Source: an uncultured Gammaproteobacteria bacterium (GTDB lineage Bacteria > Pseudomonadota > Gammaproteobacteria > Steroidobacterales > Rariloculaceae). Taken from it: a stretch of 64,000 nt of DNA. The notes beneath the pieces are model-generated. The model was not told the origin of the DNA and did no database searches. It saw only the letters and a program-made list of their open reading frames with translations. The stretch spans positions 247-64,246 of the forward strand of contig CAXYEE010000026.1 of assembly GCA_964276105.1 (NCBI GenBank), given 5' to 3'. This document shows, piece after piece, positions 1,989 to 62,545 of the stretch. Position 1 is the first letter of the stretch; every line of letters starts with the position of its first letter. A program made the translations under genes and the position numbers.

Positions 1989-2012
1989 CTTAAATTAAAG
2001 GAAGTTTTGACG

Positions 2013-4190
2013 ATGAGATTTTTTTCTATAGGAATAGTTATCGTAATAGCCGGTATTTTATTTGTTAGGAACAGTGCCGCTCAAATTGATTCTGATGTGG
2101 TCACAATTGATACAGACGATATTGGTGGATTGGTTGTTAGTAAATCTGGTGCTGAAGCTGGTGTATGGGTGATTGCGGAGACTAGGGATTTGCCAACAGG
2201 TTTTCGTAAGATTGTTGTGACAGATGAATCAGGCTACTACTTGATACCAGACCTGCCCTTAGCCAGTTATGACATTTGGGTGCGTGGTTATGGGCTGATC
2301 GATTCTCCAAAGTTAGAAGCAGCGCCTGGTGAAATTATTAATTTGACAGCAGTTGAAGCACCTACTCCTCAAGAGGCAGCTCAATACTATCCATCAAGTT
2401 ATTGGTATTCACTTATTGAGATTCCACCTAAAAGTGATTTTCCTGGAACAGGTCCTAATGGCAATGGAATAGCGACTGGTCTGTTAAGCCAGCTTCACTG
2501 GATTGGTCAGATGAAAGCAGGTGCAGTTGGGGGAGGGTGCTCGGTTTGTCACCAGTTAGGTAATAAAGCTACCCGTGAGATCCCACAAGAACTAGGCGCT
2601 TTTGATTCGACAGTAGATGCTTGGGACAGGCGCGTGCAATCAGGGCAGGCTGGTGCGAGCATGACAGCCGCTATGTCGAGATTTGGTCGTCGCCGCGCAT
2701 TAGAAATGTACGCAGATTGGACCGATCGAATTGTAGAAGGTGAAATTCCATCTGAGCCCCCTAGACCACAGGGTATCGAGCGCAACCTTGTAGTTACACA
2801 GTGGGATTGGGCTGATCCGGTTGGCTTTGTGCACGATACAGTCTCTACCGACAAACGGAATCCAATGCTCAATGCTAATGGTCTTGTCTATGGGGTGCAG
2901 GAGTTCAGTACACCGGATCTAAATATCCTGGATCCTGTGAAGAATAGTTTGACTCGAATTACTGCTCCTGTCCGTGATGAAAATACACCCTTTATGAATC
3001 CGCAGTTTGTATTTCAGCCCTCGGCTCATAATGGGGATGAGATAGTATGGTCTGGGAAAGCCAGTTTGCATAACCCAATGATGGATCACATGGGGAGAGT
3101 GTGGCTTACCCACACGATTCGTGCACCTGAGACCCCTGATTTTTGTCGTGAAGGCTCTAATCATCCGTCAGCAAAACTTTTTCCTGTAGAACGAAGTAAT
3201 CGACATCTTTCTGTTTATGATCCAGCAACAGAGGGTTTTTCATTGATTGATACCTGTTTTGGGACGCACCATCTACAGATAGCAGAAGATGAAGACAACA
3301 CGGTTTGGGCAAGTAATCCTGGTAGCCCAGTATTGGGCTGGTTAAATATGCGATTGTTTGATGAAACTGGTGATGAGCAACAGGCACAGGGCTGGTGTCC
3401 TTATATACTAGATACTAATGGGAATGGTCAGCAGGACGTGTATGTTGAGCCAAATGAGCCAATCGACCCAACTCAGGACAAACGTATAGATGGAGGCAGT
3501 TACGGAATTATTCCAAGCCCTGTTGATGGGTCGATTTGGGTAGCGCAGGGTTATGACGTACCAGGTGCCATAATAAGACTGAGTCCTGGAGCTAATCCTC
3601 CAAACACATGTCTTGCAGAGGTCTATGAGCCTCCCTTTAATAATCCAGCATCCACTATTAGTGGTTTTACTCCGAGGGGGATCGATATTGACCGTGAAGG
3701 AGTTATATGGACTGCCTTAGCTGGTAGTGGGCACTTTGCAAGTTTTGATCGCCGTAAGTGCTCAGTGCTTAATGGGCCAACAGCTACAGGGCAGCACTGT
3801 GCAGAAGGATGGACGCTGCATGAGACACCAGGACCTCACTTTAAGGACGTTGCCTATTCGGGTAGTGCTGATATGTTGTACTACAACTGGGTAGACCAAT
3901 TCGATACATTAGGTCTTGGTAAAGATGTGCCAATTGCGACGGGAACTGGGTCTGATTCACTATTGGTGCTACAACCCGATGGAGAGTTTCTTGTATTGCG
4001 TGTGCCTTACCCTATGGGATTTTCTACACGTGGTGTTGATGGCCGGATTGATGATCCAAATACTGGATGGAAAGGCAGAGGGCTTTGGGCAAACTACGCT
4101 ATTCATGCACCTTGGCATACTGAGGGTGGTGAAGGTGTAACCAGTAAAGCTGTTAAGTTTCAGTTGCGACCAGATCCGCTTGCGAGATAA
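2013..4190 (+). CDS. Exported protein with carboxypeptidase-regulatory-like N-domain, one CxxCH haem-c binding motif and a beta-propeller-like (Vgb/SMP-30-like) C-terminal region
   Basis: The track ORF starts at TTG 2007; ATG 2013 lies 8 nt after AGGAAG. N-terminal hydrophobic signal (MRFFSIGIVIVIAGILFVRNSAAQ). GVWVIAETRDLPTGFRKIVVTDESGYYLIPDLPLASYDIWVRGYG resembles CarboxypepD_reg. CSVCH is encoded at 2538-2552. Repeated GSIWVAQ / GVIWTAL / NTVWASN strand motifs suggest a propeller. It starts about 20 nt after the preceding gene's stop. Confidence 0.7.
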   Translation: MRFFSIGIVIVIAGILFVRNSAAQIDSDVVTIDTDDIGGLVVSKSGAEAGVWVIAETRDLPTGFRKIVVTDESGYYLIPDLPLASYDIWVRGYGLIDSPKLEAAPGEIINLTAVEAPTPQEAAQYYPSSYWYSLIEIPPKSDFPGTGPNGNGIATGLLSQLHWIGQMKAGAVGGGCSVCHQLGNKATREIPQELGAFDSTVDAWDRRVQSGQAGASMTAAMSRFGRRRALEMYADWTDRIVEGEIPSEPPRPQGIERNLVVTQWDWADPVGFVHDTVSTDKRNPMLNANGLVYGVQEFSTPDLNILDPVKNSLTRITAPVRDENTPFMNPQFVFQPSAHNGDEIVWSGKASLHNPMMDHMGRVWLTHTIRAPETPDFCREGSNHPSAKLFPVERSNRHLSVYDPATEGFSLIDTCFGTHHLQIAEDEDNTVWASNPGSPVLGWLNMRLFDETGDEQQAQGWCPYILDTNGNGQQDVYVEPNEPIDPTQDKRIDGGSYGIIPSPVDGSIWVAQGYDVPGAIIRLSPGANPPNTCLAEVYEPPFNNPASTISGFTPRGIDIDREGVIWTALAGSGHFASFDRRKCSVLNGPTATGQHCAEGWTLHETPGPHFKDVAYSGSADMLYYNWVDQFDTLGLGKDVPIATGTGSDSLLVLQPDGEFLVLRVPYPMGFSTRGVDGRIDDPNTGWKGRGLWANYAIHAPWHTEGGEGVTSKAVKFQLRPDPLAR

Positions 4191-6900: not shown

Positions 6901-7878
6901 ATGGGGCTTTTAATAGAAGGAAAATGGCATACTGACTGGTACGATACAAAATCAACTGGTGGGAAATTTCAGCGTACAGCCTCCGGTTTTAGAAATTGGA
7001 TAACTAAGGATGGCAGTCCTGGGTTAACCGGTAAAGGTGGCTTCAAAGCAGAACCAGATCGCTACCATTTATATGTGTCGTTGGCCTGTCCCTGGGCTCA
7101 TCGCGCCCTGATTTTTAGAAAATTGAAGGGGTTGGAGGAGCTTATTACAATTTCCTCGGTTAATTCTTTTATGGGTGACGAGGGGTGGACCTTTGAATCA
7201 GGAAATGGCGTCATTGCAGATAATGTGAACCATAAATCAAGACTGCATGAAATTTATACGAAAACATCTGAAAAATATACTGGGCGAGTGACAGTTCCAA
7301 TGCTTTGGGACAAACACAGAGATACGATAGTTAGCAATGAGTCTTCAGAAATAATAAGAATGCTTAATAGTGCCTTTGATGATGTTGGAGCTGCTGTTGG
7401 TGATTTTTATCCTACTGATAAACGTCAAGAAATAGATACTATAAATGAGCTGATTTATAACAACGTTAATAATGGCGTCTATAAGTCTGGTTTTGCAACC
7501 ACACAGGCAGCGTATGATGAAGCAGTAAATAATTTATTTGATGTATTAGAAAAGTTAGAGCAAGTCTTAACAGTAAATCGTTACCTTATTGGAGATCAAA
7601 TAACTGAAGCAGATTGGCGATTATTTACTACGTTGGTTCGTTTCGATGCGGTCTATGTCGGGCATTTTAAATGTAACAAAAAACGGATAATTGATTTTCC
7701 AGAATTATCCAATTATGTTCTGGACTTATATCAGTATCCAGGTATTTCCAGTACTGTTGATTTTGAGCATATTAAATCTCATTACTACGCCTCTCATGAG
7801 AACCTTAATCCCTCATCGATTGTTCCATGGGGGCCTCAACTTAATTTTGATCAGCCTCATAACCGTGATCGGTTCTAG
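6901..7878 (+). CDS. yqjG: Xi-class glutathione S-transferase / glutathionyl-hydroquinone reductase (YqjG/ECM4-like)
   Basis: 325 aa with RYHLYVSLACPWAHRALIFRKLKGLE (the CPWAHR catalytic motif), VPMLWD and SNESSEIIRMLN. Confidence 0.85.
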   Translation: MGLLIEGKWHTDWYDTKSTGGKFQRTASGFRNWITKDGSPGLTGKGGFKAEPDRYHLYVSLACPWAHRALIFRKLKGLEELITISSVNSFMGDEGWTFESGNGVIADNVNHKSRLHEIYTKTSEKYTGRVTVPMLWDKHRDTIVSNESSEIIRMLNSAFDDVGAAVGDFYPTDKRQEIDTINELIYNNVNNGVYKSGFATTQAAYDEAVNNLFDVLEKLEQVLTVNRYLIGDQITEADWRLFTTLVRFDAVYVGHFKCNKKRIIDFPELSNYVLDLYQYPGISSTVDFEHIKSHYYASHENLNPSSIVPWGPQLNFDQPHNRDRF

Positions 7879-7927
7879 TGTTAAATTTATCTGGATTCAC
7901 ATCCCTGTAGTTACGAAAGGATTTTGA

Positions 7928-8686
7928 ATGTTAGGAATACCGAAAATCATTCATCAGCTCTGGAAAACAGAAGAAATCCCTCAACAATGGAAGGCAGCAT
8001 CTCATTCTGTCAGAAGATATCACCCAGGCTGGGAATATCGTCTTTGGACGGATGAGAAGATGGAAACGCACGTACGCGATCTTCATCCTGAGCTTTACGA
8101 CATTTTTATGGGGTTCGACTTAAATATCATGCGTGCAGATGTATTTCGCTACATTCTGATGCATGACTTTGGTGGGATGTACTGTGACTTAGATTATGAG
8201 TTTGTTAGACCCTTTGATTATGGGGTTGAAGAACTTGTGCTGGCCCTAGAATATGATAAATCCTATGGAGATATGGAAAACCAATTAGCAAATTTTGTAT
8301 TTGCCTCCGTGCCTCAACATAAATTGTGGCGGGACATATTAGAAGATATAAAGCGTAATCCGCCAGTTATTAGCGGTAGCCTTGATGTTTGTTTTGCTAC
8401 AGGACCTAAGCTAGTTACTCGTATATTTTATAGTGATGAGGATGGACACCCAGGGGCTAAATTAACAAATCAGCCGGCGTTTAGTCCGCGGCGTGTGCAT
8501 GGCCCTTACGAGCGAAAACATTATATTAATAGTGGTGTTACCTATGGTTTTCATCATGGGTGGGGCAGTTGGAGAGATCGTTGGAACCTCGGTTACATGA
8601 AACTTAGACTCAGTAAAATGCTTGGGTTAGGGCCTGGACCTAATGAGCAAGGTAGGCCGGATGACGTTCCCCCTCTGGGGCGCTAA
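7928..8686 (+). CDS. Glycosyltransferase with DXD motif (Gly_transf_sug / OCH1-like sugar-binding region)
   Basis: 252 aa with IPKIIHQLWKTEEIP...WEYRLWTDE...RADVFRYILMHDFGGMYCDLDYE, the typical signature of this family. Confidence 0.7.
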   Translation: MLGIPKIIHQLWKTEEIPQQWKAASHSVRRYHPGWEYRLWTDEKMETHVRDLHPELYDIFMGFDLNIMRADVFRYILMHDFGGMYCDLDYEFVRPFDYGVEELVLALEYDKSYGDMENQLANFVFASVPQHKLWRDILEDIKRNPPVISGSLDVCFATGPKLVTRIFYSDEDGHPGAKLTNQPAFSPRRVHGPYERKHYINSGVTYGFHHGWGSWRDRWNLGYMKLRLSKMLGLGPGPNEQGRPDDVPPLGR

Positions 8687-8692
8687 AAAACT

Positions 8693-9652
8693 TCACTCAG
8701 AAATAGATTGGTCATCCATGTCGGTGAAATCAAAATCAAGAAATGTTGTTCCGCCATCTTCCGTTTCTATAACAATATTATTTTGACTCTGGCAGTTCCA
8801 CCAGTACTCTAAACGTAGAGGCGAACCTTCTTCCTGATGCATCTGATTATAGGTCTGTCGTGTGTACCATGGAGTTTCAAGTGCTTCAGTGTCATAAAGC
8901 CAGACATCGGCCTGAATTTTACCATCATCAGTTTTTTGCCAAATCTCAATGCTTTCTAAGGCGGTACTTAAATAAGGTAATAGCCTGCCGATCCAGCCTC
9001 CGTTCGTATACATCGTGTGTGTGATAAGTGTGTGACCATCCCAAAACCCGATTGAGTCGCCATGCTCGGTCTCGTAGGCCCAGTCCTCTGGCGTATGGCC
9101 TCGACCATCTGTATAGATCCGGCGTACTTCGTTTCGAGCCTGACCTAAATGCCAGGTCTGATGTGGCGTGACCGCAAACTCATGAGGCCGTCCATTTTTA
9201 AGCATTCCTGGATAACCCCGGGCTTGACCGCAACCTGCATGGGGGTCCCAAATCCGCCCTTGTTGAGCGTTCGCTAGTATCTCATTGTGCCTCGCGGCAT
9301 ACTCACCTTTAAGGGCGGCGGTGGTTTTAACACCAACTCGATCCCTATCGTATCTAAAGGGAGTGCCTTCTCGTTCCCATAACCCACTCCAGTCAGGAAC
9401 TTCATCAAGAGATAAGGTTGTATCCTCTGACTCGGCTTCAAGCGCTTTATAAAACTCCCATGCTGACTCGTACTGCAGGCCTATTTCGATCATTCGTTGT
9501 TTTGTTTGCGGCCAAAATTGATCGTCGACACTTTCACTATCGTAACTGTCTTCTAAAAAGTTTCCCTGAGCAAATGCTAGTGAGGACATAAATGCAAAAG
9601 TCAGAACCTTGAACATCTGATACAGGATGGTTTTAATCAATGTAATATTCAA
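8693..9652 (-). CDS. Exported protein of the GxSxGxW[ED]G domain family (paralogue A-prime); function unknown
   Basis: 319-aa ORF starting at TTG 9652; an alternative ATG at 9616 gives MFKVLTFAFMSSLAFA|QG, a signal-peptide-like N-terminus. Contains HAGCGQARGYPG, RRIYTDGRGHTPEDW, GDSIGFWDGHTLIT and WWNCQSQ. It is near-identical at the DNA level to 10072-10998 over about 800 nt. Confidence 0.8.
   Translation of the reverse strand: MNITLIKTILYQMFKVLTFAFMSSLAFAQGNFLEDSYDSESVDDQFWPQTKQRMIEIGLQYESAWEFYKALEAESEDTTLSLDEVPDWSGLWEREGTPFRYDRDRVGVKTTAALKGEYAARHNEILANAQQGRIWDPHAGCGQARGYPGMLKNGRPHEFAVTPHQTWHLGQARNEVRRIYTDGRGHTPEDWAYETEHGDSIGFWDGHTLITHTMYTNGGWIGRLLPYLSTALESIEIWQKTDDGKIQADVWLYDTEALETPWYTRQTYNQMHQEEGSPLRLEYWWNCQSQNNIVIETEDGGTTFLDFDFTDMDDQSISE
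8708..9507. repeat. Copy 1 of a ~800-bp direct (tandem, gene-spaced) duplication
   Basis: Direct comparison with 10087-10889. Positions 8708-8978 are base-for-base identical to 10087-10357 (271 nt). Further identical blocks are interrupted by short divergent patches around 8979-8991 and 9275-9365, with a 3-nt length difference. Confidence 0.95.
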
Positions 9653-9661
9653 TCTATGAGG

Positions 9662-10066
9662 TTAGTCTCTACCGGGTGTTCTCCAGTTGAGCAGCGTGCC
9701 GTCTTCTTTGGTGATAGTTTGCCACATGGCTGCTGGACGTCCATCACGCATAGGATTTCCTGTAATAGTTATTTTTGCTCCTGGGGGAAGATCGCCTTTT
9801 CGCACACCACCATGCATCATGTCTTGTGGTCCTTCACCTTCAAATCCCCATGTAGTGATGGTTCCATCATTATTTTCAATGTCTACAATTAACCAGGAAT
9901 GGGGATTAATATATCGGAATTCTTTAACTGTACCAATCAATGTAATGATTTCATCTCTATTAAACATTTCTGCAGAGTGGTGTGCAGAAATTGGAGCTGA
10001 AATACAAACAAATCCAATCAATGTGTAAAGAAGGAGCTGTAAGTTTTTTAAGCATATTTTTTTCAT
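9662..10066 (-). CDS. Small exported His-His protein (DUF6152-like); function unknown
   Basis: The track ORF starts at GTG 10075, overlapping the upstream stop as GTGA. The ATG at 10066 lies 8 nt after GGAG and gives MKKICLKNLQLLLYTLIGFVCISAPISA|HHSAEMFNRDEIITLIGTVKEFRYINPHSWLIVDIENNDG. A signal peptide with an AxA-type site would leave His-His at the mature N-terminus. Confidence 0.85.
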   Translation of the reverse strand: MKKICLKNLQLLLYTLIGFVCISAPISAHHSAEMFNRDEIITLIGTVKEFRYINPHSWLIVDIENNDGTITTWGFEGEGPQDMMHGGVRKGDLPPGAKITITGNPMRDGRPAAMWQTITKEDGTLLNWRTPGRD

Positions 10067-10071
10067 AAGGA

Positions 10072-10998
10072 TCACTCCACGACTTGTTGGTCATCCATGT
10101 CGGTGAAATCAAAATCAAGAAATGTTGTTCCGCCATCTTCCGTTTCTATAACAATATTATTTTGACTCTGGCAGTTCCACCAGTACTCTAAACGTAGAGG
10201 CGAACCTTCTTCCTGATGCATCTGATTATAGGTCTGTCGTGTGTACCATGGAGTTTCAAGTGCTTCAGTGTCATAAAGCCAGACATCGGCCTGAATTTTA
10301 CCATCATCAGTTTTTTGCCAAATCTCAATGCTTTCTAAGGCGGTACTTAAATAAGGTTGCAGCCTTCCGGTCCAGCCTCCGTTCGTATACATCGTGTGTG
10401 TGATAAGTGTGTGACCATCCCAAAACCCGATTGAGTCGCCATGCTCGGTCTCATAAGCCCAGTCCTCTGGCGTATGGCCTCGACCATCTGTATAGATCCG
10501 GCGTACTTCGTTTCGAGCCTGACCTAAATGCCAGGTCTGATGTGGCGTGACCGCAAACTCATGAGGCCGTCCATTTTTAAGCATTCCTGGATAACCCCGG
10601 GCTTGACCGCAACCTGCATGGGGGTCCCAAATCCGCCCTTGTTGAGCGTTCGCAAGTATTTCATTAAACATCTCGGCATACTCGCCTTTAAGGGCGGCGG
10701 TGGTTTGTCGACCAACTTGATCCGTATCGAACCATCGGGGGACGGGACCTTCTCGTTCCCATAACCCACTCCAGTCAGGAACTTCATCAAGAGATAAGGT
10801 TGTATCCTCTGACTCGGCTTCAAGCGCTTTATAAAACTCCCATGCTGACTCGTACTGCAGGCCTATTTCGATCATTCGTTTTTTTGTTTCTAGCCAACTC
10901 TCCGGATAGGCGTTTTTCTGAGAGAAAACAAGCGGAGGTATAAGGGAGCAAGTAAAAATTATTATTGAGCAGTAGGTTTTTAGAGAAAGATTGGTCAT
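10072..10998 (-). CDS. Exported protein of the GxSxGxW[ED]G domain family (paralogue A); function unknown
   Basis: 308 aa with a hydrophobic N-terminal signal (YCSIIIFTCSLIPPLVFSQ). It carries the same conserved blocks as 8693-9652. Its stop lies within 10 nt of the start of the small His-His gene, or overlaps it. Confidence 0.85.
   Translation of the reverse strand: MTNLSLKTYCSIIIFTCSLIPPLVFSQKNAYPESWLETKKRMIEIGLQYESAWEFYKALEAESEDTTLSLDEVPDWSGLWEREGPVPRWFDTDQVGRQTTAALKGEYAEMFNEILANAQQGRIWDPHAGCGQARGYPGMLKNGRPHEFAVTPHQTWHLGQARNEVRRIYTDGRGHTPEDWAYETEHGDSIGFWDGHTLITHTMYTNGGWTGRLQPYLSTALESIEIWQKTDDGKIQADVWLYDTEALETPWYTRQTYNQMHQEEGSPLRLEYWWNCQSQNNIVIETEDGGTTFLDFDFTDMDDQQVVE
10087..10889. repeat. 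Copy 2 of the ~800-bp direct duplication
   Basis: See copy 1. The offset is 1379 nt at the left end and 1382 nt at the right end. Confidence 0.95.
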
Positions 10999-11206
10999 AT
11001 TAAATAGTGTTTCATAAGTATTATTATTATTAATAAAGGGGATGTTGAGTACAAGACCCTATCAGACGAGTATTATCGAGTAATGGGTGTAACACCTCTC
11101 ATACTTATCTTAAAGTTTGGCGACGGCAAACCCGTAATATTATCTTCACAATAGGCAGTTAGAATCGCGCAATCTACTGCTAACAAGCAAAATCAGAGAG
11201 TTGGCT

Positions 11207-11881
11207 ATGGGAAACTATATAAGTAAGATTTTCGGGACTTCTCCCGTTGGGCCAATCCAGCAACACATGGATACGTGCTACAAGTGTACTAAGGAACTCA
11301 TTGTGTTCTTCGAATTAGTATTAAGAGAGGATTGGGACCAAGTCGAATTAGCCAGAACCCGCATCGTGAATTTAGAGCACAAAGCTGACGATTTAAAGAA
11401 ACAGTTACGAGCCCAGCTTCCAAAGAGTCTTTTTATGCCAGTACCCCGGCAAGACCTGCTGGAACTGCTGTTGGTTCAAGACCATATTGCAAATCTTGTC
11501 CGTGACGTTTCTGGCCTCGTTCTTGGCCGACGGATGATCATTCCAGAAGTGATGCAGAAAGATTTCCTCTCTTTCGTGAGTCGTAATGTAGACGCTGCTG
11601 AGAAGGCACGAAAAAGCATAAGGGAGTTGGATGAGCTTTATGAAACTGGGTTTCGTGGTGCTGAGGCAGAACTGGTTACGGCACTTGTTCAAGAGCTCGA
11701 TCAGATCGAAGACGATACCGATGCTATGCAGGCAAAGATTCGGGCAGAGTTATTTGCAATTGAGAAGGACTTGCCTCCGATAGATGTAATTTTCCTCTAT
11801 CGGATTATTGAGCTCACTGGCGGAATCGGTGATATGGCTGAGCGTATTGGGCGACGCCTAGAAGTTCTTTTGTCACATTAA
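11207..11881 (+). CDS. DUF47/TIGR00153-family protein (PhoU-like phosphate transport regulator partner of PiT)
   Basis: The track ORF starts at TTG 11201, with an ATG at 11207. It is helical and ~224 aa, ending IELTGGIGDMAERIGRRLEVLLSH. It lies 12 nt upstream of a PiT transporter gene, the conserved pairing. Confidence 0.8.
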   Translation: MGNYISKIFGTSPVGPIQQHMDTCYKCTKELIVFFELVLREDWDQVELARTRIVNLEHKADDLKKQLRAQLPKSLFMPVPRQDLLELLLVQDHIANLVRDVSGLVLGRRMIIPEVMQKDFLSFVSRNVDAAEKARKSIRELDELYETGFRGAEAELVTALVQELDQIEDDTDAMQAKIRAELFAIEKDLPPIDVIFLYRIIELTGGIGDMAERIGRRLEVLLSH

Positions 11882-11893
11882 AAGAGGCGATAA

Positions 11894-13147
11894 ATGGAGC
11901 ATCAAGTAATTTATTTGACCCTTGCGGCTGTTTTTGGCCTGTATATGGCATGGGGTATAGGTGCCAACGACGTCGCCAACGCAATGGCGACATCGATAGG
12001 GTCCGGTGCGCTGACTATAAGATCAGCATTGGTTGTTGCCGCGGTATTCGAGTTTGCGGGCGCCGTGCTTGCCGGCGGCGAGGTTACTTCTACGGTCCGT
12101 CGAGGAATCGTGGATTCTTCTTACGTAATAAACGAGCCGCAGACCTTAATATATGGAATGCTTGCTGCATTGCTTGCGGCAGGAACGTGGTTACTGATTG
12201 CGTCTCGTAAGGGATGGCCAGTATCGACAACCCATTCTATTGTTGGTGCCATTGTCGGCTTCGCCATTGTTGCTTTAGGTGTTGATTCAGTCGAGTGGCC
12301 GCAGGTGTTCACGATTATTGCAAGCTGGATTGCATCGCCATTGACAGCCGGTGTGATCGCGTACTTTATATTCAATTCGATTCATTGGCTTATTTTGGTG
12401 CGACCAGATCCTTTGCATCGTGCGCGCCTCTACGCTCCTCTGTATATCTTCGTCACAGTAACGCTCATCTCGCTGGTGACTATGTTTAAGGGCCTGAGCC
12501 ACGTCGGCCTCACGCTATCAACTGGAGAGAGCTACTCTATTGCACTGGCATTCGGTGCTGTTATCGCATTTATCGGTCGCTGGTTCGTGCTTCGTATCCC
12601 CATAGATGAGAAAGCGGATCGACAATTCCACTTCGCCACAGTAGAACGTGTTTTCGCTGTTCTTATGGTTATTACGGCTTGTAGTATGGCGTTTGCACAT
12701 GGTTCGAATGATGTAGCTAACGCCATTGGCCCTGTTGCCGCAGTAGTAAGTATCGCCCAGAGCGGCATCGTCGGACAGGACTCGCCTGTGCCGATATGGA
12801 TTCTGCTAATGGGTGGTGCCGGTATCGTAATTGGATTGGGAACTTTTGGTCGGCACGTTATCGCGACTGTCGGTGCACGGATTACCGCTCTAACTCCAAC
12901 GCGGGGGTTCTCGGCGGAACTGGCTGCGGCATTTACAATCGTGTTTGCGTCGGGCACAGGTATGCCGGTATCTACCACTCACGTATTGGTGGGCGCTGTC
13001 CTAGGCGTTGGCATGGCCCGAGGTATGACATCTATTAATTTGGCTGTGGTGGGTAGGATTTTTGTTTCCTGGGTCGTTACAATTCCAGCGGGAGCACTGT
13101 TAGCGGTTTGTTTCTTCTATTTGCTCCGGTGGCTACTGCCTATTTAA
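11894..13147 (+). CDS. pitA: Inorganic phosphate transporter, PiT family
   Basis: 417 aa and polytopic, with the duplicated PiT signature GANDVANAMATSIGSGAL and GSNDVANAIGPVAAV. Confidence 0.9.
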   Translation: MEHQVIYLTLAAVFGLYMAWGIGANDVANAMATSIGSGALTIRSALVVAAVFEFAGAVLAGGEVTSTVRRGIVDSSYVINEPQTLIYGMLAALLAAGTWLLIASRKGWPVSTTHSIVGAIVGFAIVALGVDSVEWPQVFTIIASWIASPLTAGVIAYFIFNSIHWLILVRPDPLHRARLYAPLYIFVTVTLISLVTMFKGLSHVGLTLSTGESYSIALAFGAVIAFIGRWFVLRIPIDEKADRQFHFATVERVFAVLMVITACSMAFAHGSNDVANAIGPVAAVVSIAQSGIVGQDSPVPIWILLMGGAGIVIGLGTFGRHVIATVGARITALTPTRGFSAELAAAFTIVFASGTGMPVSTTHVLVGAVLGVGMARGMTSINLAVVGRIFVSWVVTIPAGALLAVCFFYLLRWLLPI

Positions 13148-13317
13148 ATGTGTCGAAAGGGCACCGGATGTTTATAGACGAGCACAAAAAAACTAGCTCT
13201 AAGAGGTGCTCAGACAAGTTTTCTCTATAATCTTGGTATGAGTCCTAACCAAATTTTCAATAGATTATTTTCATGCATTTTAGGATTATTTCTAAACGCT
13301 ATCTCTCCAAGATGAAA

Positions 13318-56172: not shown

Positions 56173-56985
56173 GTGCTAAAGATCAGGCTGAGAAGCTCAG
56201 TATCAACATTCCTGTTGCTTGTTTTAATGAGTAATGTTGTAAAAGGACAGTCTTCTGAGACTGAGTTTCCTAGGGGTTGGGATGGCAAGCCTAATTTAAA
56301 TGGAATTTGGCAGGCAATTGGTACGGCACACTGGGATATTCAGGATCATCCTGCAAGTGCTGGATTACCTGAGTTTGGAGCAATCGGTGCAATCCCCCCA
56401 GGCCAAGGTGTGGTGGATGGGAATGAGATTCCCTATCAACCTTGGGCCTTAGAGCAGAAACAAAAAAACTTTGATGACCGTTTTACGATGGACCCGGAAA
56501 TCAAATGTTATTTGCCAGGAGTTCCTCGAGCAACCTACTTGCCTTATCCTTTTCAGATAATTCAAGGCACTGATAAGACCATGATTGTTTATGGCTTTGC
56601 AGAAGCCAGTCGTACAATCCATATGAATGTAGAAAACCCAAAACCTGCACCAATTGATAGTTGGATGGGGCGTTCCCATGGGAAATGGGAAGGGGATTCC
56701 TTTGTGGTCAATGTGGCAGAGTTTAATGGACAGTCATGGTTTGATCGAGCCGGTAATTTTGCTAGTGAAACACTTCGTGTGGAAGAGCGATATACACCTC
56801 TTGGTCCAAATGCTCTTATGTACCAGGCTACTATTGAAGACCCAAATGTTTTTACTGAATCTTGGACTATTAGCATGCCACTCTATCGTAGGCTAGAGGA
56901 TCTAGTGCAAGTTTTAGAATTTAAGTGTGTCGAGTATTCAGAAAGTATTTTATACGATCACCTTAGACGGCAGCCCGTAGAGTAA
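56173..56985 (+). CDS. Exported stand-alone GxSxGxW[ED]G-domain protein; function unknown
   Basis: 270 aa with a GTG start after GGGGAG and a signal-like N-terminus (KIRLRSSVSTFLLLVLMSNVVKG|QS). The family blocks are LNGIWQ, KCYLPGVPR, SRTIHMN, GRSHGKWEGDSFVV, VEERYT and FKCVEY. Confidence 0.8.
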   Translation: MLKIRLRSSVSTFLLLVLMSNVVKGQSSETEFPRGWDGKPNLNGIWQAIGTAHWDIQDHPASAGLPEFGAIGAIPPGQGVVDGNEIPYQPWALEQKQKNFDDRFTMDPEIKCYLPGVPRATYLPYPFQIIQGTDKTMIVYGFAEASRTIHMNVENPKPAPIDSWMGRSHGKWEGDSFVVNVAEFNGQSWFDRAGNFASETLRVEERYTPLGPNALMYQATIEDPNVFTESWTISMPLYRRLEDLVQVLEFKCVEYSESILYDHLRRQPVE

Positions 56986-56993
56986 ACATACAG

Positions 56994-58745
56994 TTGCAGA
57001 GGTATTACAAGTTGCAAAGAAAAAACTTTGTTTTTACAACCCTTATGCTAGGGATAATAACGTTGATGCCATACCCAATACTGGGTGCAAATTATCATCA
57101 TGTACATATTCTTGCTCCTAGCCCGCTCGAAGCAGTGAAATGGTATACAGATTATCTGGACTGTGATTCGATTGTAAATCGTATAGATGCAGTTAGTTGT
57201 GATGATATTGAAATTGTCTTTATTGCACGAGCTACCTTAGGAGGTACTCAGGGTACTGGCGTTAATCACATAGCATTTTCAGTCCCTAACCTTGAAAATA
57301 AAATGACTGAACTTGAAAGAGTGGGAGTGTATGGATCAGGTGTTAGGCTGCATAGATTTTCGGATGGTTCAATATTCCAAGATATTCCTGGTTTATATAA
57401 GTCTGGCTTTATTTTTGATCCATGGGGGACTCGGATCGAGCTTGTAGAGGATGCAGACCTTTTAGGATTTCACCATGTTCATTTGAGTTCACCAAACCCT
57501 GAAGAAACATTACTTTGGTATCAGGAAGTTTTTGATGGTGAATTAGCAAGATTGAAGGGGGAGATAGATGGTGTTTTGTTGGGTGATATCTGGGTTCTAG
57601 TGTCCGAGCATTTATCTGGTAGTCCAGCACCAACGCAAGGACGTACTCTTGAAAATTTAGGGTTTGTTGTGCCAGATCTTAATGTAGCGATATCTGGTTT
57701 TCAGGAAAAAGGGCTAGGTGTTCAGCTTGATTCTTTAGGTGAGGGCGGAAGGCCGCAACGCGCTTTTTTGCTTGGGCCTGATAATGTAAATATTTCAGTC
57801 GTTGAATCAGGTTGGGTTAGTGTAAGCGCACAGCAAAAAGTCGATAGGCCTTTAGCAATAGAGCTTCAAGAGCGTTACAGCACATCTTCTACTCCTTGGG
57901 GTGAGCCTGATCTTCAAGGAATTTGGACAAGTGATGCAGCTCATGGGATTCCTTTAGAGAGACCTCTTAATGCTGTACAAACAGTTCCGCTAACACCTGA
58001 AGAAGCGGCTGCCCGTCGCGAAAGAGGAACGCTTAATAGCATTTGGGGGTATGAAAGAGAGTGGCGTGATACTACGTTAGGGTATGCAAAAAACGCTCCC
58101 TCTACCCAAGTGTCATTGATAATTGACCCATCTGATGGTCGACTCCCACCCATGACCCCTTATGGTGAGTCGCTTGTTGCAGCAGCAGAGCTTGCAGCAA
58201 ATCAGCAAAGGTTACCCGCAGGGCCAGAAGATTTAAGTACAGATGATCGTTGTATTACGCGCGGGCTTCCGGGACTGATGTTGCCTAGGGTATATAACAA
58301 TGGATTACAAATTGTCCAAGGCCCAGGTTATGTCGCAATACAAAAGGAAATGGTTCATGAGACGCGTGTAATTCCAACCACAGAAAAACCACATCTTGGG
58401 TCTTCTCTAACCCAATGGCTTGGAGATTCCCGAGGATATTGGGATGGAGAAACACTGGTGGTAGAGGCGCTAAATTTTAATGGTCGGTCACCATTCAGGG
58501 GCGCTGGTAAAGATATGAGGTTAACTGAACGTTATACACGTATTGGACCAACTACGATTGAATATATGTTTACCGTAGTCGATAGCACGATATGGACTAG
58601 TCCTTGGACTGGAATTTTTCATTTTGAAAAAGATGATGATCAGTATGAGCTTGTCGAATATGCATGCCATGAGGGAAATTATGGCCTCACAGGTATATTA
58701 AGTGGTGCTCGTGCTACGGAAAGGGAATCTGCCGCTAATCAGTAA
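56994..58745 (+). CDS. Exported fusion: two VOC (glyoxalase/bleomycin-resistance/dioxygenase-like) domains + C-terminal GxSxGxW[ED]G domain
   Basis: 583 aa; the start is TTG 56994 or ATG 57045. The N-terminal half has two repeats of the VOC pattern (YHHVHILAPSPLEAVKWYTDYL...GVNHIAFSVP...FDPWGTRIELVE and FHHVHLSSPNPEETLLWYQEVF...LENLGFVVPDL). The C-terminal half carries LQGIWTS, DRCITRGLPG, ETRVIPT, GDSRGYWDGETLVV, LTERYT and YACHEGN. Confidence 0.8.
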   Translation: MQRYYKLQRKNFVFTTLMLGIITLMPYPILGANYHHVHILAPSPLEAVKWYTDYLDCDSIVNRIDAVSCDDIEIVFIARATLGGTQGTGVNHIAFSVPNLENKMTELERVGVYGSGVRLHRFSDGSIFQDIPGLYKSGFIFDPWGTRIELVEDADLLGFHHVHLSSPNPEETLLWYQEVFDGELARLKGEIDGVLLGDIWVLVSEHLSGSPAPTQGRTLENLGFVVPDLNVAISGFQEKGLGVQLDSLGEGGRPQRAFLLGPDNVNISVVESGWVSVSAQQKVDRPLAIELQERYSTSSTPWGEPDLQGIWTSDAAHGIPLERPLNAVQTVPLTPEEAAARRERGTLNSIWGYEREWRDTTLGYAKNAPSTQVSLIIDPSDGRLPPMTPYGESLVAAAELAANQQRLPAGPEDLSTDDRCITRGLPGLMLPRVYNNGLQIVQGPGYVAIQKEMVHETRVIPTTEKPHLGSSLTQWLGDSRGYWDGETLVVEALNFNGRSPFRGAGKDMRLTERYTRIGPTTIEYMFTVVDSTIWTSPWTGIFHFEKDDDQYELVEYACHEGNYGLTGILSGARATERESAANQ

Positions 58746-58755
58746 GGTGTTGCTA

Positions 58756-59172
58756 ATGCGTATACCATCGCTAGTATTTTTTATAATAAGTATTTGTCTG
58801 TTACAGCAGTCAGGAGTATCGCTTGCTCATCATGCGTTTTCTGCAGAGTTTGACCAAACAAAACCTGTCACTCTTCGTGGCACGGTTACTAGGATGGAAT
58901 GGATAAATCCTCATTCTTGGCTGCATATCGACGTTATTCAAGAAGACGGTAGTGTAGAAAACTGGATGATAGAGGCAGGACCCGCGGGGGTTCTTGTTCG
59001 CCGAGGATGGACAAGAGAGTCGGTAGCGATTGGTACTGACGTTTTAGTTGAGGGTTATCAGGCCAGGGATGGCTCAAATCGTGCAAATGGTAGGGATGTC
59101 ACATTGCCAGATGGACAGCGCCTATTTGCAGGTTCGGGAGGGATAGGCGCTGCACCACAGGTAGAAGAATAA
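58756..59172 (+). CDS. Small exported His-His protein (DUF6152-like); function unknown
   Basis: The track ORF starts at GTG 58702, inside the upstream gene. ATG 58756 lies 10 nt after that gene's stop and gives MRIPSLVFFIISICLLQQSGVSLA|HHAFSAEFDQTKPVTLRGTVTRMEWINPHSWLHIDV...GWTRESVAIGTDVLVEG. Confidence 0.85.
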   Translation: MRIPSLVFFIISICLLQQSGVSLAHHAFSAEFDQTKPVTLRGTVTRMEWINPHSWLHIDVIQEDGSVENWMIEAGPAGVLVRRGWTRESVAIGTDVLVEGYQARDGSNRANGRDVTLPDGQRLFAGSGGIGAAPQVEE

Positions 59173-59389
59173 TAGTAAGTGTGAGGAGAAAGTTGCAGGC
59201 CGCAAAAGTTTTTGGAATAAGTTTTTTGTTCTATAAGATGTGTTGAGTTTCTTATTCACTACGTAACTATAAATTACTAGCATTGCGAGAATTAATGGTT
59301 AGCTTTGTTAGGAAAAAATTTGTTGTCTTCTACAACCCTTGTTTGAAGGGTAAGATGATCAGTATTACCGCTAATTTGTGGAGGACTCA

Positions 59390-60643
59390 ATGTATAAAAT
59401 AAAAATTGATTTACATAGCTTGAGAAAAGGATTAAAGGCAATAATGTTGCTCGTAGTTTTTTTTATTGCAGCTTGCAGTCAAGGCACTGGAGATGTTGAT
59501 GTTACTGTCTATCAAGGAGCACGATTAATTATTGGGGATGGCTCAGTAATAGAAAATGGTGCTTTTGCTGTTAATGATGGCCAGGTTGTGGCTGTTGGAA
59601 CCACTGCTAGTATCTCTATAGATGGTGCTATGACAGTAGATCTAAGCGGCATGACTGTAATCCCGGCAATTGTTGATGCTCATGTTCATATGAGTAACAC
59701 CCGAGAGGAAATTCTTGATGATCTTCGTCGGCGAGCACATTTTGGTGTGGGAGCTGCTATGAGTATGGGCTCTGATCCTGAAGGTGTTCCATTAGAACTA
59801 CGAGATGAGATTGTGCCTGGACATGCGCGGTTTAAGTCAGCAGGACTTGGTATTACTAGACCCGAACCAGGCAGAAGAATGGTTCATTGGGTTGATACAC
59901 CTGCTCAAGCACGTGAAGCGGTGCAGACAGAGGCGTCTCGTAATGTTGATGTAATAAAGGTTTGGGTTGATGATCGGGATGGTCTTTATGATCAATTGAC
60001 GCCGGAGCTATATGGTGCAGTTATTGATGAAGCACATCAGCATGATATTCAGGTTTCTGCACACCTTTTTGAGCTGGAAGATGCTAAAGGACTGTTACGG
60101 GCTGGTGTTGATATTCTTGCACATGGAGTGCGTGATCGAGACATTGATGTCGAATTTATCTCTCTTGTAAATGAACGTCCAAACCTTGTGTTAATACCAA
60201 ATCTTCCAGGTCGTGGTATTAGTTCTGATTACAGTTGGTTAGAGGGTTCTATTCCGGACGAAGATTTTCAACGACTACAAAATATGGATGCAAGCTCCCA
60301 GGCACAATCAGCGCATGCTATACAAGCTAGAAACCTTTCTAGGTTAAGCCAAGAAGGTATGACTATAGGAATGGGGACAGATGGTAATACTCCATGGGGG
60401 GCACATATTGAGATGGAGGATATGGTTCTTGCAGGCATGTCTCCTGGTGATGTCATTGTGTCTTCAACCAAAAATTCTGCTGAGATTCTAGGATTAGACG
60501 ATATGGGTATTCTTGAAGAAGGTTATAGTGCTGACTTTGTCGTTTTAAGTGCTAACCCGTTGGATGACATTAAAAACACAAGGCAAATCTCATCGGTTTA
60601 TCTACGTGGTGTGGAGGTAAATCGCGAGGGGTTTGTATGGTAA
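59390..60643 (+). CDS. Amidohydrolase family protein with lipoprotein-type signal
   Basis: ATG 59390 follows GGAGGA. Lipobox FFIAAC. The metal-binding motif is VIPAIVDAHVHMS, with later SAHLFE, ILAHGV and GMGTDGN, and a C-terminal GYSADFVVLSANPLDD. Confidence 0.85.
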   Translation: MYKIKIDLHSLRKGLKAIMLLVVFFIAACSQGTGDVDVTVYQGARLIIGDGSVIENGAFAVNDGQVVAVGTTASISIDGAMTVDLSGMTVIPAIVDAHVHMSNTREEILDDLRRRAHFGVGAAMSMGSDPEGVPLELRDEIVPGHARFKSAGLGITRPEPGRRMVHWVDTPAQAREAVQTEASRNVDVIKVWVDDRDGLYDQLTPELYGAVIDEAHQHDIQVSAHLFELEDAKGLLRAGVDILAHGVRDRDIDVEFISLVNERPNLVLIPNLPGRGISSDYSWLEGSIPDEDFQRLQNMDASSQAQSAHAIQARNLSRLSQEGMTIGMGTDGNTPWGAHIEMEDMVLAGMSPGDVIVSSTKNSAEILGLDDMGILEEGYSADFVVLSANPLDDIKNTRQISSVYLRGVEVNREGFVW

Positions 60644-60751: not shown

Positions 60752-62038
60752 ATGATGAATGAACATAGTCAGAAACGTTGGGTTTCTAGAGCAGGTTTCT
60801 TGGTTTTCTGTGTATTAGGAATCTATTATCAGAATGTTCAAGGACAGACTGAGCCAGGCTCTGGGTTTGCTGCAGTGCCAGGATTAAGGGGCGGGCAAGA
60901 TGTTCATGGTCCCTATGAGGTGGTGCCAAACTGGCCAAAGCCGATGTCAGAAAGTCTTCCAGGTCACGAAGGCTGGACTTGGTCCGTTACCATGGATGTT
61001 TTTGCTGAGAGTCCAGATCGTGTATTCCTAGTTCAAAAAGGTGAGCTAGCTCTTATTGAGGAAAGACCTGATTCGGTCTGGTTACCAGAGCTTGGTGCTG
61101 GTTTGCGCTACCCCAATTTTCGTTTACCACTCCGTCAAGCTGGGGCAGGTATTCCAAATGGAGATCGGTTGGATGAGCCGGGTAATGGCCGGCCGGGAAT
61201 TGATTGGCGTTGGGAGCACTGCGTTCTAGTAATTGATCGTGAAGGAAATATTGTTGAGGAATGGAGTCAGTGGGACCACCTATGGTATCGGCCTCATGAT
61301 GTTGAGATTAGTCCGTATGATCCAGATAAACATGTTTGGATCGTTGATGCCGATGGTCATTTTGTTGCTAAGTTTACAAATGACGGTTCAGAGTTGGTTA
61401 TGACATTGGGTACGCCGGGGGAGCCAGGAGAGTCTGACAATCATTTTAGACGTCCTACATTTCTGGTTTTTATGGATGAGAACACCATGTACCTTGCCGA
61501 TGGTTATGACAATACTCGGATCATTAAATACGATATGGATGGCAATATTTTAGCCCAATGGGGTGAGAAGGGACGAGGTCAAGGCCAAGAGACAAGGCCA
61601 GGTTATTGGAATAATGTTCATGGTATTGCTGTTGACCCTACAACACGGCGAGTTTATGTGAATGACCGTGATAATGGACGTGTCCAGGTATTTGATGAAG
61701 ATGGTAATTATTTGGATGAATGGCAGTTTTGGTCAGGTAGGCGAGGACAGCCTCAGGATATACATAGCTTTATTGTTACAAGTGATCAAAAACTATGGGC
61801 AGCAGATCAGGGTACCCACAAGATTTTAGGGTACGATCTTGATGGTTATTTTCTTTACTCATGGGGTAGTTGGGGAGAGTATCCCGGAGGTATGTGGGGT
61901 GTTCATGGGATGTCAACTGATAACGAAGGTAACTTTTACACTGCCTCTGTTAATAACGGACGTATTCAAAAGTTTCGCCCTCGAGAAGGGGCTAATCCTG
62001 AATTTTTGATTGGTAAGCCATGGCCAGGCGCTTGGTAA
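60752..62038 (+). CDS. Exported NHL-repeat beta-propeller protein (peptidyl-alpha-hydroxyglycine lyase-like fold)
   Basis: 428 aa with a signal-like N-terminus (WVSRAGFLVFCVLGIYYQNVQG|QT). Repeated NHL-type blades: MYLADGYDNTRIIKYDMDGNIL, VYVNDRDNGRVQVFDEDGNYL, LWAADQGTHKILGYDLDGYFL and FYTASVNNGRIQKF. Confidence 0.75.
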   Translation: MMNEHSQKRWVSRAGFLVFCVLGIYYQNVQGQTEPGSGFAAVPGLRGGQDVHGPYEVVPNWPKPMSESLPGHEGWTWSVTMDVFAESPDRVFLVQKGELALIEERPDSVWLPELGAGLRYPNFRLPLRQAGAGIPNGDRLDEPGNGRPGIDWRWEHCVLVIDREGNIVEEWSQWDHLWYRPHDVEISPYDPDKHVWIVDADGHFVAKFTNDGSELVMTLGTPGEPGESDNHFRRPTFLVFMDENTMYLADGYDNTRIIKYDMDGNILAQWGEKGRGQGQETRPGYWNNVHGIAVDPTTRRVYVNDRDNGRVQVFDEDGNYLDEWQFWSGRRGQPQDIHSFIVTSDQKLWAADQGTHKILGYDLDGYFLYSWGSWGEYPGGMWGVHGMSTDNEGNFYTASVNNGRIQKFRPREGANPEFLIGKPWPGAW

Positions 62039-62101
62039 GTAAACAGTAGGCATATAATTTGGTCTAATCCAAGCTGTCTTTATGGTAATTGTTTGGAAGT
62101 A

Positions 62102-62545
62102 ATGAAAACAATGATTAAAAGCCTTATTGTTTTGGTAGGCATACTTCTTGCGATGTTGTGCGTTATGGCGCGTGCTCATCACGGTGATGCAGGTCGATAT
62201 GATGAAGCAATTATCACATTAACTGGGACGGTTATTGCACTGCAGCTAATTAATCCGCATTCTATATTGATACTTGATGTGAAAAACCAGGATGGTGAGG
62301 TGGTCAGGTGGCAAGCCGAGTTTTCAAATGCCGCTAGTCTGGCTAGGATTGGCTGGACTACCCAGACGCTACAATCTGGTGATGAAGTTGTGGTGGCTGG
62401 TCGTCGTGTAAAAAGCGGCGCACCTTATATCAACCTCAGCGAACGAGCTCGAATTTTCAAACTAGAAACATGCGAAGATATCTATCGTTCTGGAATGATT
62501 TTTGGGGAAGCACCAGATTATCCAGCACCAGCTTGCAGTATGTAG
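62102..62545 (+). CDS. Small exported His-His protein (DUF6152-like); function unknown
   Basis: The track ORF starts at TTG 62093, with ATGs at 62102 and 62111. MKTMIKSLIVLVGILLAMLCVMARA|HHGDAGRYDEAIITLTGTVIALQLINPHSILILDV...GWTTQTLQSGDEVVVAG. Confidence 0.8.
   Translation: MKTMIKSLIVLVGILLAMLCVMARAHHGDAGRYDEAIITLTGTVIALQLINPHSILILDVKNQDGEVVRWQAEFSNAASLARIGWTTQTLQSGDEVVVAGRRVKSGAPYINLSERARIFKLETCEDIYRSGMIFGEAPDYPAPACSM

Follow-up and report, generated by a model that had tools for sequence, protein, structure and literature searches.

Within a 64,000-nucleotide stretch of DNA from an uncultured marine gammaproteobacterium of the Rariloculaceae (GenBank assembly GCA_964276105.1, contig CAXYEE010000026.1, positions 247 to 64,246 of the forward strand; hereafter the window), two large paralogous genes, referred to here as A and B, flank a small gene of the DUF6152 family on the minus strand. 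Most probably, A and B are old paralogs that were recently and incompletely homogenised by gene conversion in the lineage of the window. The duplication itself is old, and the homogenisation is restricted to discrete tracts, across which sequence was transferred in both directions. We infer that homologous recombination was the mechanism and that divergence between the copies set the ends of the tracts, with no need to invoke selection. The big-small-big gene order, given in a preliminary description of the DNA, was confirmed by the open reading frames (ORFs) and is present in independent assemblies. The three genes, the two copies of the region shared by A and B (in nucleotides [nt]), and the tracts and patches into which this region divides are as follows, with protein lengths in amino acids (aa):

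10072-10998, minus strand: gene A, an ORF encoding a 308-aa secreted protein
9662-10066, minus strand: DUF6152 gene, 134 aa from the ATG at 10066
8693-9652, minus strand: gene B, paralog of A, 319 aa from the TTG at 9652
10087-10897, minus strand: shared region, copy 1, inside gene A
8708-9515, minus strand: shared region, copy 2, inside gene B
8708-8978 (= A 10087-10357), minus strand: homogenised tract of 271 identical nt, in which sister loci have 34-46 differences
8979-8991 (= A 10358-10370), minus strand: patch 2, 5 differences in 13 nt
8992-9274 (= A 10371-10653), minus strand: homogenised tract of 283 nt with 2 differences
9275-9365 (= A 10654-10747), minus strand: patch 1, 24 differences in 91 nt and a one-codon indel
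9366-9498 (= A 10748-10880), minus strand: homogenised tract of 133 identical nt

Aligning 8708-9515 with 10087-10897 by repeat search, MAFFT and blastn gave 811 columns with 95.7% identity, 32 mismatches and one 3-nt indel. The near-identical duplication of about 800 nt with dense patches that had been read from the sequence was thus borne out, with the patches where they had been placed, as were the base-for-base identity of the first 271 nt (8708-8978 = 10087-10357) and the divergence of the signal peptides and of the last five residues. Exact runs between A and B measure 271, 197, 133 and 82 nt. Patch 2 encodes GGWIGRLL in B and GGWTGRLQ in A, and further differences lie in the first ~18 nt of the shared region and in the last 5 codons; the 5′ parts of the two genes, which encode the signal peptides, are unrelated. 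The differences between A and B are significantly clustered in a Sawyer-type run test (P<5e-5): the 271-nt run was reached in none of 20,000 permutations over all 821 core sites and, likewise, in 0/20,000 when the 328 family-polymorphic sites were considered, and in 6/20,000 when only the 116 sites that distinguish the two paralogs of the sister locus L004 were used.

Evidence for gene conversion between A and B

At every site where the window copies (wA and wB) differ, wA carries the state of the A genes of loci L001 and L021, and wB carries that of the B gene of L004. This pattern also holds at 58 diagnostic sites, where four A-orthologs and two or more B-orthologs show a fixed difference. 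Between the two window copies, synonymous divergence (dS) reaches 0.585 (patch 1) and 0.687 (patch 2) versus 0.021 elsewhere, and these values, together with the ortholog states, identify the patches as old paralog-specific relics rather than sites of new diversification. Outside the patches, the window copies are much closer to each other (dS 0.021) than to their respective orthologs (0.26-0.30), and dS between the A and B genes of L004 reaches 0.459 there. The two large tracts show the same relation, with 0/271 and 2/283 differences between wA and wB compared to 9-25 differences from their orthologs, and with 2 of 185 third positions differing in the window versus 48 of 185 in L004.

The direction of transfer was polarised with sites fixed between several A-orthologs and several B-orthologs. 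Polarisation by the L004 A and B genes alone was abandoned, given that the L004 A lineage is itself divergent. In the identical tracts, both window copies are A-type at 16 diagnostic sites and B-type at 6 (A nt 156, 381-397, 642 and 858), a mixture that implies transfer in both directions and at least two events. Within the tract at 8992-9274, A-type and B-type diagnostic states are mixed, and this tract carries shared lineage-specific mutations. Conversion also entered patch 1, since B carries the A-type peptide TTAALKGEY at A nt 293-325, where B-orthologs have TTANLKGEY; patch 1 of B thus holds a short A-to-B conversion island. Moreover, wA and wB have eight states in common that none of the 11 close relatives shows; mutations arising in the window lineage were thus copied between the genes. 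For example, the peptide ANAQQGR has a Gln in both window copies at a position occupied by Glu in A-orthologs and by Lys in B-orthologs.

Outside the patches, wA differs from the A gene of L021 with a dS of 0.26, compared to 0.06-0.11 for the flanking genes and 0.046 for patch 1 of wA. Because the non-patch part of wA is more distant from L021 than its neighbours are while patch 1 has stayed close, these values fit a scenario in which part of A was overwritten from B. In all lineages, dS between A-type and B-type genes is higher in the patches (0.84-1.4) than outside them (0.35-0.46), which suggests that older conversion may have acted outside the patches across lineages too.

In the mechanism that we propose, homologous (RecA-type) non-reciprocal recombination between A and B would recently have overwritten most of the shared 811 nt, through at least two conversion events running in both directions in the window lineage. 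Tracts would begin and end wherever the copies are locally too dissimilar for strand exchange, that is, at the ~70%-identical loop patch with its indel, at the short second patch and at both ends of the homology, and these segments would thereby retain the old copy-specific sequence.

The locus in related genomes

Four states of the locus were found in close relatives, namely, two diverged copies, two homogenised copies, one copy with a pseudogene, and one copy. The big-small-big order with both copies intact occurs in L004, L030, L031 and L067-L073, loci drawn from several independent assemblies of marine metagenomes, Tara Oceans among them. Of these sister loci, L004, L030, L031 and L067-L070 share with the window the gene order as well as the copy-specific ends and patches of A and B, and B orthologs were identified as L004B, L030B, L031B, L039B and cluster P0002. 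The two copies of the sister loci (A′ and B′) are 85.3-86.7% identical with a longest identical run of 50-58 nt, versus 95.7% and 271 nt in the window. Across the five consecutive segments of 151, 91, 283, 13 and 271 nt, the window copies differ at 4, 24, 2, 5 and 0 sites, respectively, and the copies of the sister loci at 14-16, 27-30, 20-30, 3-5 and 34-46 sites. Judged from these sequence comparisons, the big-small-big arrangement is real and old, and only the high identity between A and B is peculiar to the window.

B is dispensable, as its decay or absence in other close relatives indicates. In L021 and L032, the closest relatives (a Gammaproteobacteria metagenome-assembled genome [MAG], in which A is 96% and Pit/PhoU 98-99% identical), B has been reduced to its 5′ end and its final ~180 nt and contains stop codons, which makes it an internally deleted pseudogene. 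In L001-L003 and L033, gene A (~94% protein identity) is followed by the small gene and then by a convergent glycosyltransferase gene, and B is absent. We also considered that B of the window might be a pseudogene of the L021 type repaired from A, which was rejected because the B-type patch 1 falls within the segment that this pseudogene has deleted.

One sister contig departs from these states. At L005 6840-6966 (MAG UBA6522, DJLG01000009.1), the large gene is of the A′ type, its last codons and the downstream sequence are of the B type, and the small gene is skipped. The contig ends ~60 nt past this A′-to-B switch, for which reason a repeat-induced assembly join is more likely than a natural crossover deletion between the repeats, and the latter was not accepted.

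The region from the cyclophilin gene to gene A (window 10899-13200) exists as two haplotypes among the loci. In one haplotype (window, L021 and L001), this region holds Pit and PhoU-like genes, and the signal peptide of A is of the "MTNLSLK" type; in the other (L004, L030 and L067), it holds an amidohydrolase gene, and the signal peptide of A′ is of the "MNRTNLS" type. The breakpoint between these haplotypes lies inside the 5′ end of gene A, at approximately window 10897. On the other side of the locus, dS between the window and L021 rises from 0.06-0.11 upstream (Pit, PhoU-like and DUF6152 genes; 9662-13147) to 0.34 downstream (glycosyltransferase and GST genes; 6901-8686), and this jump near gene B indicates strain-level recombination or a chimeric join. 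More distant Rariloculaceae carry several big/DUF6152 pairs side by side (L018 4611-6891 and L012 5110-11896), so that tandem amplification of this module is recurrent. One of these arrays includes a big gene that tblastn matched only as three overlapping pieces and that may be disrupted; a small gene and another big gene come next.

Alternative explanations for the mosaic

Homologous recombination requires near-identical stretches, and mismatches abort the exchange; low local identity is therefore enough to explain where the tracts end. No other stretch is as poorly conserved across the family as patch 1, which in every locus contains an indel and is ~70% identical between A and B; in each lineage, the pair is least similar at the patches. 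Patch 2 is short but dense, and the remaining tract boundaries coincide with the ends of the homology. Low local identity has thus probably stopped the conversion tracts at the patches. Alternatively, conversion could be frequent along the whole gene, with selection keeping two functional loop variants of which the patches would be the specificity determinants. This explanation, which we regard as unlikely though the best placed of the alternatives, finds support in the dS excess of the patches in all lineages, implying that they escaped conversion repeatedly and over the long term, in the location of patch 2 in an otherwise invariant loop beside R212, and in the strong purifying selection on intact B (dN/dS [omega] of 0.04 between wB and the B gene of L004). 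However, the dN/dS check of the patches gave no sign of positive selection, with omega between the window copies at 0.43 (patch 1) and 0.15 (patch 2). Conversion also reached into patch 1 of the window, the poor conservation of this patch within the family accounts for its escape through low identity alone, and B has been lost or has decayed in close relatives. The preliminary description had proposed, as one of three readings among which it did not choose, ongoing gene conversion that spares specificity-determining segments; the conversion was recovered in our analysis, but the selective sparing was not, considering the omega values below 1, the conversion inside patch 1 and the sufficiency of low identity.

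The mosaic could also have been produced during assembly, if two real copies had their similar stretches merged by the assembler (bubble merging or repeat collapse), leaving only the patches that could not be merged. Only one 89-kb contig, derived from a metagenome, shows the mosaic: exact look-ups of A and B in the contig index returned no record, and a cluster look-up placed each of them on this one contig. States unique to this contig and common to both copies would also be expected from a collapse. In addition, the end of the L005 contig shortly after the A′-to-B switch, at the 3′ conserved block, shows that the repeat disturbs assemblies. Nevertheless, the copies are 85-87% identical in nine other assemblies, with no exact run above 58 nt, which is too different for similarity-based merging, and the true copies of the window would still have to be far more alike than those of the sister lineages. 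Contigs normally break at a collapsed repeat of 271 nt, whereas this one spans at least 64 kb through both copies, and the mixture of A-type and B-type states in the tracts fits neither parental haplotype. We therefore consider an assembly artefact improbable. With regard to the collapsed or chimeric assembly raised previously, other assemblies independently confirm that there are two copies and in which order the genes lie; the mosaic form of B comes from one contig. A very recent duplication of A into B followed by fast local diversification, possibly under positive selection, was likewise suggested beforehand and is rejected as next to impossible, since the long exact tracts, although compatible with a young duplicate when taken alone, are accompanied by B orthologs from many other assemblies, in which A and B are only 85-87% identical and B shows the patches, signal peptide and C-terminus seen in the window, by patch states in B that match B-orthologs and the wider family consensus, and by patches with saturated synonymous sites (dS 0.59-0.69) and an omega below 1.

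Several points weigh against recent conversion between old paralogs as the explanation favoured here, or against parts of it. The mosaic B (P0269) and A (P0262) proteins are each recorded from one 89-kb contig only. The direction calls rest on few diagnostic sites, some of which possibly reflect ancestral polymorphism, and old clade-wide conversion blurs what is A-type or B-type outside the patches. Two loop variants may also be maintained by selection, an omega below 1 over a 32-codon patch being a weak test. As for the proteins described below, the functional model is without an experimental or annotated relative, and the fold matches in the PDB are weak, with a query-normalised template modelling (TM) score of 0.28.

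Layout of the locus

Genes A and B lie in direct orientation, 1.38 kb apart, with the DUF6152 gene between them. The exact protein of gene A is recorded as P0262 on an 89,090-bp NCBI/ENA contig. For gene B, the public annotation places the start at the ATG at 9616, giving 307 aa (P0269); the product carries a signal peptide of its own, and its N-terminal linker exceeds that of the gene A product by 11 aa. The small ORF extends over 9662-10075, and the ATG at 10066 yields a protein of 134 aa, which is the length of the orthologs; an in-frame GTG at 10075 overlaps the stop codon of gene A. Our scan detected no terminator-like site between A and the end of B, for which reason A, the DUF6152 gene and B are read as one operon. 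A candidate promoter precedes gene A:

11020-11048, minus strand: sigma-70-like promoter match upstream of A, a consensus match only

Matches to this consensus numbered 3, compared to 5.6 expected in shuffled sequences, and thus constitute weak evidence.

Family and predicted fold of the large protein

Scans of the large protein against Pfam and NCBIfam matched no family, and a sub-threshold Prim-Pol match was taken as chance. Sequence searches of the PDB with profiles of both the large and the small proteins returned nothing meaningful. A word-indexed search yielded 1280 homologs of the large protein, and an exhaustive profile search retrieved 5671 representatives of 50%-identity clusters (E<=1e-3), all named ones being "hypothetical." The large superfamily of the barrel domain is without a Pfam model, and its members are found singly, beside DUF6152, or in fusion with DUF6152 and apparently with a glyoxalase/VOC domain. 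Pfam scans of the longer members for fused domains gave only one DUF4168.

A structure model based on a 107-sequence alignment reached a mean predicted local distance difference test (pLDDT) score of 87.6, compared to 48.9 with an alignment of 24 sequences. The model comprises a signal peptide, N-terminal helices, a beta-barrel at about residues 146-259 and a C-terminal extension. Foldseek matches in the PDB were all calycins (FABP/CRABP, SAHS, avidins and nitrophorin), with E values of ~1e-3 and target-normalised TM scores of 0.5-0.6. In the model, the barrel is antiparallel and starts with a strand of the GxW type (GDSIGFWDG), as in calycin-type barrels (FABP/CRABP, avidins and lipocalin-like proteins). 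The protein differs from these in the lack of sequence similarity and the weak fold scores, in its additional helical N-terminal part of ~110 residues and C-terminal extension of ~50 residues, and in its many invariant Arg, Asp and His residues. Mapping of the variable patches onto a structural model, as had been advised at the outset, assigned patch 1 to the loop at residues 83-104 and the start of the helix at 105-119, and patch 2 to the conserved loop at 206-221, next to the invariant R212.

The DUF6152 partner and a possible function

The small protein matches DUF6152 (PF19649) well above the curated cut-off (E 2.3e-27; 95.4 bits versus a gathering cut-off of 27; profile positions 3-93 of 98), a family that is itself without a described function. 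A literature search for DUF6152 or PF19649 found no paper mentioning the family in the library covered. The motifs HHS, NPHSW and PMxDGRPA are invariant in 20 DUF6152 homologs. The mature N-terminus His-His-Ser follows an AxA-type end of the signal peptide, with the cleavage site inferred by eye, and a further invariant His lies ~27 residues past the mature N-terminal His. This arrangement suggests that DUF6152 may form a metal site using the N-terminal His and the histidine of the NPH motif. As a lead for the family, we take periplasmic copper proteins with an N-terminal His ligand (CopC, YcnI and the LPMO-type histidine brace) to be the presumable point of comparison. DUF6152 proteins resemble these in being small and secreted with an invariant His at the predicted mature N-terminus and differ from them in having no detectable sequence relation.

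The DUF6152 gene follows the large gene in nearly all related loci, and the other neighbours vary. Proteins in which DUF6152 and the barrel are fused are encoded at L027 2675-3730 (hhalign E 1.3e-4) and in the window at 975-1988 (E 6.3e-7). Taking the structure model into account, we hypothesise that the products of the locus form a periplasmic module, in which a putative barrel-type ligand-binding protein, present as two isoforms differing mainly in one surface loop, would act together with DUF6152. A further proposal is an as yet undescribed periplasmic two-protein system in which a DUF6152 metal-binding subunit with a His-His N-terminus would serve two interchangeable calycin-like ligand-binding subunits differing in one surface loop, with conversion holding the partner-binding scaffold of both isoforms identical and selection keeping the specificity loops apart; we consider this a long shot.

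Members of the same families are encoded elsewhere in the window, all on the plus strand. At 975-1988, the 337-aa secreted fusion protein has an N-terminal DUF6152 part (mature HHS) and a barrel homologous to A and B. It is followed at 2007-4190 by a gene for a 727-aa secreted protein that matches no Pfam family and contains CSVCH, a CxxCH motif of the haem-c-like type. A second cluster of the same families occupies 56173-59172 and includes a 270-aa barrel-only paralog (hhalign E 3.5e-5), a 583-aa glyoxalase/VOC protein whose C-terminal stretch shows barrel-family motifs by eye, and a DUF6152 gene at 58702-59172. The fifth DUF6152 region, which is the fourth stand-alone gene, lies at 62093-62545. 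It is preceded by genes for an amidohydrolase (59378-60643) and an NHL/SMP-30 propeller protein (60752-62038) and is directly followed, in a span reaching 63589, by a gene for a TctC-like binding protein of the tripartite tricarboxylate transporter type, the match being weak and just sub-threshold (E 1.6e-5; 25.0 bits versus a cut-off of 27).

Significance and comparison with known systems

As an evolutionary phenomenon, the homogenisation of A and B is textbook material brought about by an ordinary mechanism, which here acts on an uncharacterised gene family; the documentation of the case is unusually good. The locus offers a compact natural example of tandem paralogs that are homogenised or lost while divergent segments escape conversion. 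Read data should be used to check the sequence and the number of copies at loci of this kind, because the repeat disturbs metagenome assemblies. The barrel protein without a Pfam family and its DUF6152 partner are widespread in marine and soil Proteobacteria, occur several times in the 64-kb window and are unstudied.

Concerted evolution by gene conversion is well established for tufA and tufB in Salmonella and E. coli. Recurrent gene conversion between paralogs has been catalogued in prokaryotes (PMC6053082), and gene conversion has been described at the PE/PPE and esx loci of Mycobacterium tuberculosis (PMC13061034, PMC12046097). As in these bacterial cases of concerted evolution, A and B are paralogs that are more alike than orthologs within discrete tracts, with homogenised synonymous sites, transfer in both directions and divergent segments that escape. 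In contrast, A and B have no assigned function and lie in one apparent operon with only their partner gene between them, B is an accessory gene that may be intact, decayed or absent in close relatives, and the homogenisation of A and B is seen in one lineage only.

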